From: Vicinamibacterales bacterium
GTDB taxonomy: Bacteria > Acidobacteriota > Vicinamibacteria > Vicinamibacterales > CAVVIG01
Reading direction: 5' to 3'
DNA: 64,000 bases
Assembly (NCBI GenBank): GCA_965229885.1
Contig: CBDDJX010000002.1
Location: 509,127-573,126 of the forward strand
A program made the translations under genes and the position numbers. Numbering within the stretch: the stretch's first letter is position 1; every line of letters begins with the position of its first letter. The notes beneath the pieces were generated by a model. The model did not search any database and had not been told where the DNA came from. It saw only the letters and a list, made by a program, of their open reading frames with translations. This document shows positions 4,566 through 8,504 of the stretch, in pieces.

Positions 4566-4616
4566 AAAGTCAAGTTGAGACACTACCTAGCTTTTCGTCA
4601 ACTTGACAATACCCTC
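4566..4616. repeat. Back-to-back IS6-type terminal repeats (GTCAAGTTGA...TCAACTTGAC)
   Basis: AAAGTCAAGTTGAGAC faces CTAGCTTTTCGTCAACTTGACAATACCCTC. The latter 30-mer is the exact reverse complement of 6672-6701. Confidence 0.6.
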
Positions 4617-5446
4617 GGGCGCTGTTCTATGTCTGGCGGGCCGCGTTTGAACGCGACGGTGAGGCTGGGCTCGTCAACAAGCGCCCGGTGGCCCGTTCAC
4701 ATCCGCGCACCACGCGCCCGGAGGTCGTGGAGCAAGTGCTGCACGTGCGGCGGACCTATCACCTCGGCCCGCAGCGGATCGTCTGGTACTTGGCGCGCTC
4801 CCAGGGCGTGAGCGTCTCGGACGCCACCATCTACCACATGCTGCGGCGCCACGGGCTGCGTCGTGTGCCCAATCGCGTGGGCCGGCGCGCCGTGCATACC
4901 CATCGCTATGCTAAACAGGTCCCTGGGCATCACGTGCAGGTCGACGTGAAGTTCCTCACGCTCCAAGGGCCAGCCGGGCAGCGAATCCGTCGCGACCAGT
5001 ACACGGCGATCGATGATGCCACTCGGATCCACGCGCTCCGCGTCTACCGGCGACACCCACAGCAGCACGCCATCGCCTTGGCAGACGACGTGATCCGGAC
5101 GTTTCCCTTCCGTATTCACACGGTGCGCACCGACCGCGGCCATGCGTTCCAGGCGCTGTTGCATTGGCACCTCGCGGACCAGGGCATCCAGCACGTCTAC
5201 ATCAAGCCCCGCACCCCACAACTGAATGGGAAAGTCGAGCGTTCCCATCGCACAGATCAGCAGGAGTTCTATCAGCTCCTGAGCGACAAGGGCGATGTCG
5301 ATCTGGAGCAACGGCTGGCCGAGTGGGAGCGCTTCTACAACTTCGGTCGGCCCCACGGAGCATTCGCCGGGCAGACCACGTACGAAGCACTTCGAGAACG
5401 GTTACAGTCATGATGGCGACTGTCCCACGAGATCCGTCACATCACA
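4617..5446 (+). mobile_element. IS481-family element (type A), 5'-truncated; transposase fragment 4617-5413
   Basis: ALFYVWRAAFERDGEAGLVNKRP...HHVQVDVKFL...TDRGHAFQ...PRTPQLNGKVERSHRT... is colinear with the full 312-aa copy at 57145-58083. The right end ...CTGTCCCACGAGATCCGTCACATCACA matches that copy's terminus. Confidence 0.85.
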
Positions 5447-5571
5447 TGCCCGATAGAGCCGCTCGTGGTTCCCGTCCCATTTTTCGGCCGCGTTCACATC
5501 GAACCACCAGCCATCATCGAGTACCTGCTGTCCCTCTACTCATCGCCTCCATCCCTGCCTCCGGCGGGCCG

Positions 5572-5784
5572 TCCAGGCCGCGATCGCTTCCGAGGACAAC
5601 CACACCGTCACATCGCCCCGTCGAACGAGGGCCCGGTTATAGGCCGGCCAGTTCGCAACGCGGTACTTCATCTTATACGTGGGATGGACCTTCGACTGCA
5701 TCTCTGTAGTGTGGCTCCTGCGGAGGATCACGAGAATGCGGGCCACGCCGCCCCACCCGCAGAGGGTCTTCATGCAACAACGCC
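5572..5784 (-). mobile_element. IS5/IS903-like 5'-terminal fragment (first about 50 codons plus terminal repeat)
   Basis: MQSKVHPTYKMKYRVANWPAYNRALVRRGDVTVWLSSEAIAAW, then a break. Terminal repeat ...TTCATGCAACAACGCC ends at 5784. The breakpoint is the same as in the fragment at 31632-31832. Confidence 0.8.
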
Positions 5785-5806
5785 GAGAATCGCCGCCTCG
5801 GTCAAC

Positions 5807-6196: not shown

Positions 6197-6362
6197 CGTC
6201 GATGATTCTCTCATATGCCTCACGAAGCACGGTGCGCCGCATGCGTGAGGGTGTCCTCGCCGGTGATGGTTCGGGGTCGACCGTTAATACACTACGGGGA
6301 ACAAGAAATTCCCCGTACGCGCAATCTTCCCCATAACCACACTCGGCCACATACCACAGTAC

Positions 6363-6671
6363 GGCACTGTCAAGTTGACGTTGAACGGACAGGCTCTGCC
6401 GCTGATGGGGCGATGATGCAGCCCTCCGATTCAGACACACGTCACCTCCCGCCAGGCCCCAAAGGCTCGCGTGCGCAACAGGCGATGGTGGACGGCTCGC
6501 AGGAGGTGACGACCGACACGAAACAGATTCAACACGACGCCGTGCACCGACAGGAACCGTTGCGCCTGCGCAGCAGAGGTGAACCTCCGCATCTGTTGCT
6601 CACGCTGGCGGGTCGGTTGGTGCGACACTTCCGCCCGATTGTTCTCGTATTGCGGCGTGCTGTGCATCACT
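6363..6671 (-). mobile_element. IS6-family 3' fragment (terminal repeat plus transposase C-terminus)
   Basis: Outer repeat GGCACTGTCAAGTTGACG at 6363 (compare the IS26-type GGCACTGTTGCAAA). Translation ...QYENNRAEVSHQPTRQREQQMRRFTSAAQAQRFLSVHGVVLNLFRVGRH... is a typical IS6 transposase C-terminus ending at 6431. Confidence 0.7.
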
Positions 6672-6797
6672 GAGGGTATTGTCAAGTTGACGAAAAGCTA
6701 GTCGATCGACCCCCAAGATACTGGGCTCCAGCCCGTCGCGAACCCGCCATGCTGGGCATCAAAAACGGCCGTCAGCCCCAACTTGACTGTGAGCATG
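6672..6797. repeat. MITE-like unit bounded by IS6-type repeats
   Basis: GAGGGTATTGTCAAGTTGACGAAAAGCTAG at the left. The inverted CCCCAACTTGACTGTGAGC at the right is disrupted by the putative IS110 insertion. No coding capacity. Confidence 0.45.
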
Positions 6798-7044
6798 ATC
6801 CCCCTGCCTGTCGGGGTCGCTCAGTGACACCGGTGGGTGCCGGTGGGCGGTGGCCTGACCCGCAACTTGACTGACCGACGGTCCTCGTCATTGATCTGTC
6901 GGTCACCGCCCACCGGCCAATCGTACGGCAGCCAGCTGACCGGATGGGCCGTGACCCCATAGGGGCCTGCCGCACCCACGGCCCGTCACAGTCCTGTCCG
7001 CCCACTCGGGCCAGTCCGCGCGCCGCACCCGAGGAGGCCAAACG
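6786..7044 (+). ncRNA. Candidate IS110 bridge (loop-guide) RNA region in the left end
   Basis: 14-bp stem CCGGTGGGCGGTGG (6840-6853) pairs with CCACCGCCCACCGG (6904-6917). It encloses an asymmetric loop carrying CAACTTGACTG (6864-6874) and an inner 7-bp hairpin GACCGAC/GTCGGTC. The same 11-mer forms the left junction at 6779-6789. Confidence 0.3.
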
Positions 7045-8133
7045 GTGACTCACACCATGACCACGCAGCCCGAGGTTTGGAAGGTGATTGTCGGGGTCGA
7101 TACCCACAAGCATGTCCACGTCGCGGTGGCGATCGACACCCGGAGGATCCGCCTGGGCGATCACTCGTTCGTCGCTGATTCGAGCGGATATCAGGCCCTG
7201 CTCATGTGGGCCCACACACACGGGCGGATTGAGACGTTCGGCATCGAAGGCACCGGCAGCTATGGTGCCGGCCTGGCGCGGGCCGTCCGCCGCGCGGGGC
7301 ATCGTGTCGTCGAAGTGAATCGGGGGGACCGGCACACGCGCCGCGCCGTCGGCAAGTCCGACACCGTCGATGCCGAGAGCGCCGCCCGGTCCGTGTTGGC
7401 GGGCCAAGCGACCGCGACCCCCAAAACCGGGGACGGTGTCGTCGAGATGATCCGGCAGCTCAAGATCGCGCGGGATACGGCCGGGAAAGCACGCACCGCG
7501 GCGATGGTCACGCTGAAGCAGATCGTCGTGAATGCGCCACCCCACCTGCGAGAAGCCCTCCACGCCCTCACCGATCACCGTCTGCTCACGCGCTGCGCCG
7601 CCCTCCGACCGGGCCCGCTCGACACGCCCACCGCAGCCGCCAAGCACACCCTCCGGGCGCTTGCCCGTCGCTGGCTTGCCCTGGCTGAGGAAATCGCGAT
7701 ACACACGACCAGCACCTCACCCGCCTCACGACCAAGGCGGCGCCCAGGCTCTTGGAGGGCTTCGGCGTCGGCGCCCACACGGCCGCCCAGATGCTGATCA
7801 TCTTCGGCGACAACCCCGACCGGATTCGCTCAGAAGCCGCCTTTGCGAAGCTGTGCGGTGCCTGCCCGATCCCGGCTTCGTCCGGGATGACGACCGGCCG
7901 GCATCGTCATCTATCGGGGCGGGCACCGACAGGCGAACGCCGCCCTCCATCGCACGGTCGTCGTCCGCATGCGGCTCCACCAGCCGACGGTCGACGACGT
8001 CGCCCGCCGGACGGCTGGCGGCCGGACCAGACGCGAGATCATCCGCTGCCTCAAACGCTTCCTCGCCCGTGAAATCTACCAGCGTGTTATGGCAGACTTC
8101 CGCATGCGCAGACACGTCACGCAGGCAGCCTAA
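7045..8133 (+). pseudogene. IS110-family (DEDD) transposase with at least two frameshifts
   Basis: VIVGVDTHKHVHVAVAID...FGIEGTGSYGAGLAR...GKSDTVDAESAARSVLAG in frame 1. ...LEGFGVGAHTAAQMLIIFGDNPDRIRSEAAFAKLCGACPIPASSG in frame 2. ...REIIRCLKRFLAREIYQRVMADF-stop in frame 3. Confidence 0.85.
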
Positions 8134-8177
8134 ACGCTTGTCTTGACATATAGGGGCGTCAATACCGAAATGAGGGC

Positions 8178-8504
8178 TCATAAAGCATCCGTCTTCGCGG
8201 CGAATACGAAATCGCTCTCCGTCAGACCGTCAATCTTGTGGGTCCAGATCGTGACCTTCACCCTGCCCCAGGCAAGGAAGATGTCGGGATGGTGATCCTG
8301 TTCCTCCGCCATTTCACCAACCCGGTTGGTGAAGTCCAGCGCCTGCCGAAAATCGTTGAACCGATACTCCTTCTCGAGATGATGCTCGTCGACGACCGAC
8401 CATCCCCCCTCCAGCTGCGCGAACAACGCGTCGAGCTCGGGGCCCTTCAGGGGTGGAACACCGCCGCGACATGGCACACACTGTTTCTTCGACAGATCGC
8501 TCAT
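8178..8504 (-). CDS. Pterin-4-alpha-carbinolamine dehydratase (4a-hydroxytetrahydrobiopterin dehydratase)
   Basis: 108 aa with family-typical C..C near the N-terminus, FNDFRQALDFTNRVGEMAEEQDHHPD and KVTIWTHKIDGLTESDF. Confidence 0.85.
   Translation of the reverse strand: MSDLSKKQCVPCRGGVPPLKGPELDALFAQLEGGWSVVDEHHLEKEYRFNDFRQALDFTNRVGEMAEEQDHHPDIFLAWGRVKVTIWTHKIDGLTESDFVFAAKTDAL

Follow-up and report, generated by a model that had tools for sequence, protein, structure and literature searches.

The 64,000-nt stretch of Vicinamibacterales DNA analyzed here (the window) very probably contains, between positions 6788 and 8160, an IS110-group insertion sequence (IS) that moves by bridge-RNA-guided recombination, the copy in the window having inserted into the right repeat of a miniature inverted-repeat transposable element (MITE). 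The coordinates of the element and its parts are collected in Table 1. The window belongs to a genome of 3.0 Mb in 3 contigs, and the comparison set consisted of 80 loci taken from public genomes, chiefly metagenome-assembled genomes of Vicinamibacterales. An earlier reading of the same DNA, made from its letters and open reading frames (here the sequence-only reading), had described a decayed IS110-family element apparently inserted into an IS6-type terminal repeat, with a candidate bridge RNA in its leader.

The limits of the element were drawn from homology among copies, which starts with TGTGAGC at 6788 and ends with GGGGCGTC at 8160. Junctions were surveyed in the window's genome and three related genomes. 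The five left junctions (three in the window's genome and two in a related genome, G010) all show a variable flank followed by CAACTTGAC and then TGTGAGC. On the other side, the right junctions in the window's genome run ...CTTGACATATAGGGGCGTC, ARTRCC and then unrelated DNA, and the 12 right junctions across the four genomes follow the pattern ...ATAGGGGC(G/T)TC^ARTRCC (with ^ marking the crossover point here and below), again with unrelated flanks beyond. The identical end pattern was observed across the 80 public-genome loci, with right ends located in 66 of these copies when up to 4 substitutions were permitted. An empty site was also recovered, as contigs of three public RNA-library runs pass from 6787 directly into AATACC; joints carried by single low-depth contigs were left out of use in these runs. 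The empty site equals the left flank plus the right flank with at most one base in common, and the 80 tabulated copies show no target duplication and insertion that is specific in both site and orientation. In addition, similar MITEs of 121 bp, ending ...GCAACTTGACAATGCC, stand unoccupied in the same genome. The junctions, the empty-site contigs and the unoccupied MITEs therefore define an element of 1373 bp, ambiguous by a single C that is common to 6787 and 8160. No inverted repeat between the element ends was noticed by eye, no dedicated repeat search of the ends having been made. At two loci (L062:2593-2630 and L114:2590-2630) a right end directly adjoins left-end-like TGTGAGC... or TGTGAA..., an arrangement that resembles a junction of right and left ends or an insertion into a decayed left end.

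These limits differ from those first proposed. The sequence-only reading had the element run from a CT at 6782-6783 to a CT at 8142-8143, with a length of about 1.36 kb, a CT core and an IS6-like target containing TATAGGGGCGTCAATACC. The presence of CTTGAC at both positions allows a CT-TGAC overlap to be drawn, and the core of IS621 is indeed CT. However, the 24 nt beyond 8143 are conserved whatever flank follows, in 12 of 12 right junctions and in the 66 right ends, and the 20-mer CTTGACATATAGGGGCGTCA at the right end occurs four times in the genome, each time as an IS110 right end and never as an empty site. The empty MITEs pass from ...CAACTTGAC directly into AATACC, and lineages inserted in IS3-family genes (see below) carry the same right end between flanks that translate as one continuous IS3 protein motif. 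The homology limits thus refute the CT ends and the CT core, and we regard that version of the element as next to impossible. The 24 nt that had been taken for right flank (including TATAGGGGCGTC) are the element's own right end and hold the left-donor sequence, and the target reconstructed by joining the supposed flanks, containing TATAGGGG, was wrong; the true target is an ordinary MITE/IS6 repeat, CAACTTGAC^ARTRCC. The search for intact copies that had been suggested as a check upheld insertion into IS6 repeats and at the same time moved the ends.

Insertion into an IS6-type terminal repeat was borne out by the junctions, by the empty-site contigs and by the left flank of a second copy in the same genome (L003). 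The insertion point lies 6 nt from the outer end of the MITE inverted repeat, within the target CAACTTGAC^AATACC, and 8 further insertion sites have a partner repeat at the same 119-bp spacing. L003 has on its left side a genuine full IS6 end, identical to window positions 6363-6410, and therefore the element sits inside an IS6-type repeat, between ...CAACTTGAC and its last six bases. The right flanks of the 12 surveyed copies begin with ARTRCC and then diverge, and the letters within this hexamer vary as IS6 repeat variants do. In the genome as a whole we counted 57 unoccupied repeats matching GGYAYTGTCAAGTTG with at most one mismatch and three occupied ones; the unoccupied repeats are spaced at about 800 bp (IS6, with repeat pairs 791-808 bp apart) or about 120 bp (MITE). 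The target element shows the features of the IS6 family, with a DDE_Tnp_IS240 transposase, a length of about 0.8 kb and short terminal repeats starting with GG.

The same preference was seen in a wider survey of 74 loci having a left junction, in which 1.2 kb of context was inspected. An IS6-type half-site is present in 50 of these loci. An IS6 transposase match ends within 330 nt at 23 of the IS6-type sites, 7 more have a MITE partner repeat and one has a distant IS6 match, and the neighbor of locus L039 matches PF13610 with an E value of 6.2e-37. At none of the 24 loci belonging to other site classes was an IS6 match found.

The left end of the element upstream of the transposase gene (about 257 nt, in agreement with the non-coding leader of about 260 nt described earlier) has the structure of a candidate bridge RNA. 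This structure was derived from an alignment of 42 distinct leaders, in which 96.1% of 1552 cells assigned to stems are paired, compared with 21-47% when the partners are slid. Cells in which both partners have changed number 74, against 26.7 +/- 3.9 in shuffles (reached in 0 of 500); kinship among the leader sequences inflates the significance of the shuffles, and the slid controls are the fairer comparison. The stem that closes the target-binding loop (helix 1) shows compensatory changes in 7 of its 10 pairs. A perfect 14-bp stem had been noted here before, and it exists, with its 5' arm one base away from where it had been placed (6839-6852, paired with 6904-6917). A 7-bp hairpin proposed between 6873-6879 and 6898-6904 can form in the window copy but is not conserved, as among the 42 distinct relatives its last three pairs are kept in 40% of cells, whereas 98.6% of cells retain an alternative helix between 6898-6904 and 6852-6859. 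A single-sequence fold of 6780-7050 (z = -2.28) recovered the long stem and mixed the loops, and it was replaced by the alignment-based structure. A pairing of GGGGCCUG with CAGUCCU inside the donor loop, suggested by RNAalifold, was dropped as uninformative because all of its columns are invariant.

The two internal loops contain stretches that match the target and the joined ends of the element, as a comparison of loops with target and donor DNA made clear. We assign four guides to them (Table 1), each right guide being followed by a dinucleotide that fits the other DNA partner: for the target guide it is AU, which fits the GT that precedes the crossover in the donor, and for the donor guide it is UC, which fits the target GA. 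On the donor side the guides are nearly constant, with the left donor guide ATAGGGGC found in 79 of 80 leaders and the same sequence in 64 of the 66 right ends. The UC is present in 80 of 80 leaders and GAC ends 77 of 80 targets. The constancy of UC would thus account for a GAC that stays fixed while the rest of the site varies.

The target side varies together with the insertion sites. When the 9-nt left guide of each of the 80 copies was compared with that copy's own left flank, the two were identical in 47 copies, agreed at 8 of 9 positions in 15 and at 7 of 9 in 13, and agreed at 5 or fewer in the remaining 5. After removal of duplicates the copies gave 55 guide-site combinations with 22 guide types. 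Of the seven variable bases that precede GAC, 5.65 match between a guide and its own sites, compared with 2.33 for sites belonging to other guide types, and the observed value was reached in 0 of 10,000 permutations. Single-letter switches agree between guide and site, as in CTTGAC/CCTGAC, CAACTTG/CAAGTTG and CACCGCAGAC/CGCCGCAGAC; CAAGTTGAC is another version of the loop letters. On the right, guides reading GCAUUG or GCGUUG stand against sites C^AATGC or C^AACGC. In long-form relatives of the element the right target guide is complementary to its own right flank at 7 of 7 positions (L113), 6 of 7 (L099) or 5 of 7 (L081, L083 and L084), and in L082 at 7 of 7 if it is moved by one base.

This covariation also explains an 11-mer, CAACTTGACTG, whose repetition had drawn attention to the leader. 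It occurs exactly twice in the window, at 6779-6789, as first reported, and at 6863-6873, one base to the left of the position originally given (6864-6874). With up to one mismatch allowed the window contains 5 matches where 0.75 would be expected, a number that 0 of 100 shuffles reached, and its core GTCAAGTTG occurs 6 times against 0.27 expected. The repetition reflects identity between RNA and target, the second copy being the left target guide plus UG. It had also been considered that both 11-mers are fragments of IS6-type repeats of nested MITEs, in which case the leader would be an ordinary 5' untranslated region and the protein would choose the target. This holds for most of the first copy, which consists of the last 9 nt of the interrupted MITE repeat (9 of its 11 nt) and the first 2 nt of the element, and the reverse complement of the second copy does resemble the IS6 repeat core. 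The second copy, however, falls in identical columns of the alignment in each of the 42 distinct leaders, flanked by conserved stems and within a conserved, covarying loop that every copy has whatever its flank; it changes in step with the insertion site, also in lineages that insert outside IS6 repeats, and its flanks are without MITE homology. We consider this explanation highly improbable. The leader is thus retained as a candidate bridge RNA, and on the evidence of guide and stem covariation the loop singled out by the sequence-only reading is its target-binding loop.

Several observations weigh against bridge-RNA guidance or against details of the guide assignment. Covariation of the right guide, which varies less than the left, was weak before the long forms were added (3.56 compared with 2.95 of 5, with 220 of 10,000 permutations reaching the observed value), and the right guide of the window copy expects CAATG at a site that reads CAATA. 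Of the 50 IS6-type sites, 19 have neither an IS6 gene nor a partner repeat within the 1.2 kb inspected. An Rfam search of 6300-8400 (E up to 10) returned no bridge-RNA family; its two matches were chance microRNA hairpins, mir-6096 (21.4 bits against a threshold of 100) and mir-943 (20.3 bits against a threshold of 95), with E values of 0.28 and 2.4 for the pair. RNA-library contigs that lie over the leader cannot prove an RNA, as such libraries may contain DNA. Finally, donor and target have one base (C) in common at the crossover, compared with the CT of IS621, and there is an offset of 3 nt between the crossover and the pairing of the left donor guide; given the one-base core and this offset, the register of the guides is an assignment and not a demonstrated one.

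The RNA-library contigs cover the MITE and the leader more than the gene, and their summed depth tracks repeat copy number in the public runs and is no measure of expression. Contig ends near 6950 were considered as RNA ends and rejected, as they coincide with a polymorphism at 6958.

Bridge-RNA guidance would work in this element as follows. Transcription of the 257-nt left end would yield an RNA containing two internal loops, of which the first would read the target, its guides specifying CAACTTGAC^AATG or ARTRCC, that is, the terminal inverted repeat of IS6-family elements and MITEs 6 nt from its outer end. The second loop would read the element's joined ends, with AUAGGGGC matching the right end and UCACAG complementing the left end. 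The AU and UC that follow the right guides would pair with the non-cognate partner (donor GT and target GA, respectively), in the manner of the IS621 handshake guides, and the window copy would have inserted by this route into the right repeat of a 119-bp MITE. At the crossover the sequence is GAC^A in the target and GTC^T in the donor, so that the base before the common C is A in the target and T in the donor; the left guide reads AC, and the right guides are the complement of the other partner's version. Right guides that match the other partner may represent an extension of the handshake principle. If a circular intermediate is formed, TTGACA at 8143-8148 would come to lie 18 nt from CATGAT at 6794-6799 (as -10), and the circle junction could in this way assemble a promoter, a suggestion that derives from motif spacing. 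A promoter and terminator scan of 6600-8300 gave 0 sites, with no sigma-70-like site in the integrated copy.

The gene downstream of the leader encodes a transposase of IS110 type. The N-terminal RuvC-like DEDD domain (PF01548) was detected with an E value of 1.9e-16 on the first frame piece and 4.1e-19 in L002, an intact copy in the same genome. The C-terminal Tnp domain with the catalytic serine (PF02371) was detected in L002 with an E value of 1.3e-16 and is present, out of frame, in the window. In an alignment with the IS621 transposase (8wt6; phmmer E 9.6e-9 over two stretches) the DTxK, IEGTG, SDxxDA and SG motifs (D, E, DxxD and SG) line up. At least two frameshifts had been reported in the gene at 7045-8133, and alignment with the intact 361-aa gene of L002 shows exactly two frame-breaking insertions. 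The element thus has the features of the IS110 group, namely a DEDD domain, a serine domain, a long left and a short right end, a candidate two-loop RNA and site-specific insertion; at the core, where the group has a dinucleotide that is identical in donor and target and is read by all four guides, a single C is shared. The marks of the IS1111 group, which are subterminal inverted repeats of 7-17 bp and a guide RNA beyond the gene, were not seen: 27 nt follow the stop codon, and the structured RNA lies upstream of the gene.

The transposase gene is probably broken in the window copy, and with its two frameshifts as assembled the copy is therefore probably non-autonomous, with its RNA part intact. 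An undecayed, active element whose frameshifts are assembly errors is the less likely case, although in four public runs the sole contig per run that covers 7700 and 7909 lacks both the +2 and the +1 insertion, and the +2 falls in an ACAC repeat. As the insertions are missing from all covering contigs, the frameshifts may be private to this genome or assembly errors. The covering contigs, however, also carry 4-8 substitutions relative to the window and may come from sister copies or strains, and fragmentary copies (L003, L004 and L005) in the same genome show that decay is common here.

L002, with DNA 83% identical to the window copy, and L003 (G000:C2:615928-616285, minus strand) lie about 100 kb from the window copy on the same contig. 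L003 consists of an orphan leader and the first 31 codons, and its gene is cut by another element, whose end resembles window positions ~5650-5790. L004 (G000:C3:875704-875894) and L005 (G000:C3:1971604-1971727) are right-end remnants of a related IS110 element, ~190 and 124 nt long, that still end ...GGGGCGTC^AGTGCC or AGTACC, with nothing recognizable upstream. A profile search of the genome with the leader alignment recovered the three known leaders and no others.

Related lineages insert at other kinds of sites. A lineage about 64% identical in protein is found in IS3-family transposase genes (HTH_21, rve), where translation of the flanks gives ...G(D/N)x(Y/W/F)D and NA(L/V/M)xES... (12 of 68 rows were tagged in this way, and L109 is similar with K for N), and its guides read the corresponding codons. 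Genome G010 contains four IS3-targeting copies with identical transposase matches (L019, L021, L023 and L025), and in L023 the element interrupts an HTH_21/rve gene. A further lineage, with the guide CAAGUUGAC, is inserted in IS6 relatives whose repeat has GTCAACTTG; in L097-L105, with this type of repeat, the loop has G in place of C. More distantly, a family 45% identical has nine copies of the same layout in one genome (G050, L017-L033), with ends YAGTGAGTATATGG...TTGACATTTATGAGAGCTTC; on a by-eye reading of the flanks, HSD^RG codons of a transposase gene can be recognized at several of its sites. The first base of this element is T in 4 of the copies and C in 5, at a position where the target has C, a hint that one position of the core may be mismatched.

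Forms of 2.0-2.5 kb account for three further site types. These long forms (L081-L084, L099 and L113; 1983-2532 bp) have the same ends and loops, but their right end is separated from the transposase stop codon by an additional 0.6-1.2 kb of DNA. In the extra DNA of L081 and L099 the open reading frame (ORF) lists are high-GC noise, with no clear passenger gene. Enlarged IS110 elements have been reported in a 2026 preprint.

Taken with the window copy, these relatives may represent a clade of bridge-RNA elements living on other transposons, its guides re-aimed between GTCAAGTTG and GTCAACTTG IS6 repeats and the YD^NA codons of IS3 transposases just before the catalytic glutamate, with GAC^A kept as the constant donor loop demands. 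Such a clade may use a one-base core and right guides set to the post-exchange partner. We put this forward tentatively, as an idea more likely wrong than right; if it is true, this permanent setting of the right guides would tilt the reaction in favor of insertion.

Table 1. Coordinates of the IS110-group element, its candidate RNA and the repeats around it (positions in the window; ^ marks the crossover point).
Feature	Positions	Strand	Remarks
Truncated IS6-family element	6363-6674	-	Outer repeat GGCACTGTCAAGTTGACG at 6363-6380 and C-terminal part of transposase; PF13610 DDE_Tnp_IS240, E 1.3e-7
IS6-derived MITE, first 113 of 119 bp	6675-6787	+	Left repeat GGTATTGTCAAGTTGACG; right repeat broken after ...CAACTTGAC
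IS110-group insertion sequence	6788-8160	+	1373 bp; homology limits in own-genome and related copies, empty-site contigs
Left end / leader, candidate bridge RNA	6788-7044	+	257 nt; conserved in 42 distinct leaders
Target-binding loop module	6839-6917	+	Closing stem 6839-6852/6904-6917; helix 6852-6859/6898-6904
Parts of the target loop			5' side 6860-6872; top hairpin 6873-6876/6880-6883; 3' side 6884-6897
Left target guide CAACUUGAC	6863-6871	+	Same sense as left half of target; followed by UG in the repeated 11-mer
Right target guide CAUUG	6889-6893	+	Complement of C^AATG; then handshake AU at 6894-6895
Donor-binding loop module	6940-7009	+	Outer stem 6940-6948/7001-7009 and 6951-6955/6996-6999
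Left donor guide AUAGGGGC	6959-6966	+	Equals right-end sequence 8150-8157
Right donor guide UCACAG	6986-6991	+	Complement of C^TGTGA, left end; then handshake UC at 6992-6993
IS110 DEDD transposase gene	7045-8133	+	Three frames: +2 near 7701, +1 near 7907
Right end	8134-8160	+	27 nt; TTGACA (-35-like) at 8143-8148; left-donor sequence ATAGGGGC at 8150-8157, then GTC
Last 6 bp (AATACC) of broken MITE repeat	8161-8166	+	Unrelated flank beyond

The region around the element, from 4.4 to 8.2 kb of the window, is a pile-up of at least four different mobile elements. A 46-bp mini-element at 4566-4617 consists of an IS6-type repeat, a 16-nt spacer and a second repeat core that is without its outer six bases (...CTCAACTTGAC and then TTTCAGG, on the minus strand), and it is not an IS110 junction. 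A transposase ORF with rve_3/HTH_32 matches lies at 4688-5413, and the N-terminal part of another transposase-like ORF lies on the minus strand at 5540-5790.

The element is a clear new example of the known bridge-RNA mechanism. IS621, the paradigm of bridge-RNA elements (PMC11208160, PMC11208158), shares with the window element the same two protein domains with aligned catalytic motifs, a long left and a short right end, an RNA upstream of the transposase gene with two internal loops, and TTGACA in the right end. In IS621 the left guide is 9 nt long and has the same sense as the left half-site, with the donor loop built likewise (PMC11208160), and the handshake guides are the dinucleotides 3' of the right guides, which after strand exchange pair with the other DNA (PMC11208158). 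In both elements each loop has a same-sense left guide of 9 nt and a short right guide that is antisense, and the dinucleotide after each right guide fits the non-cognate DNA. Differences are also apparent: the protein is only distantly related to that of IS621, which targets a repetitive extragenic palindromic (REP) sequence, whereas the window element targets the end repeat of another transposon. The window element has one shared C in place of CT, with A preceding it in the target and T in the donor, its right guides match the non-cognate version, and its left donor guide lies 3 nt back.

Two other groups of elements offer comparisons. IS4321 and IS5075, also of the DEDD family, enter another transposon's terminal repeat at one fixed position and in one orientation. 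Both are members of the IS1111 group, in which the inverted repeats are subterminal and the guide RNA follows the gene, in contrast to the window element, which is without those features and targets IS6-family repeats and MITEs in Acidobacteriota. ISPpu9, ISPpu10 and ISPa11 of the IS110 family insert into REP sequences and similarly use a multicopy, selectively neutral repeat as a landing pad; the repeat used by the window element belongs to another mobile element, whose end the insertion splits; sister lineages split the transposase gene of such an element instead. In the full-text literature we found no IS110-group elements aimed at IS6 repeats or IS3 transposase genes; ISfinder and the supplementary target tables of PMC11208160 and PMC11187229 lay outside this search and may list them.

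For the IS110 group, these elements provide a natural series of bridge-RNA reprogramming, in which close relatives differ at a few loop letters and their landing sites at the same letters, and the example comes from soil Acidobacteriota and not from model bacteria. Targeting of another transposon's end, known in the IS1111 group, is extended to the IS110 group and to IS6 repeats, MITEs and IS3 transposase genes. For genome annotation, such copies account for split IS6 repeats, and perhaps also for ORFs such as P0061 that look like fusions of IS6 and IS110. The accepted mechanism is unchanged, and the fixed GAC^A together with the A/T asymmetry beside the crossover gives testable hints on how handshake pairing may limit target choice.

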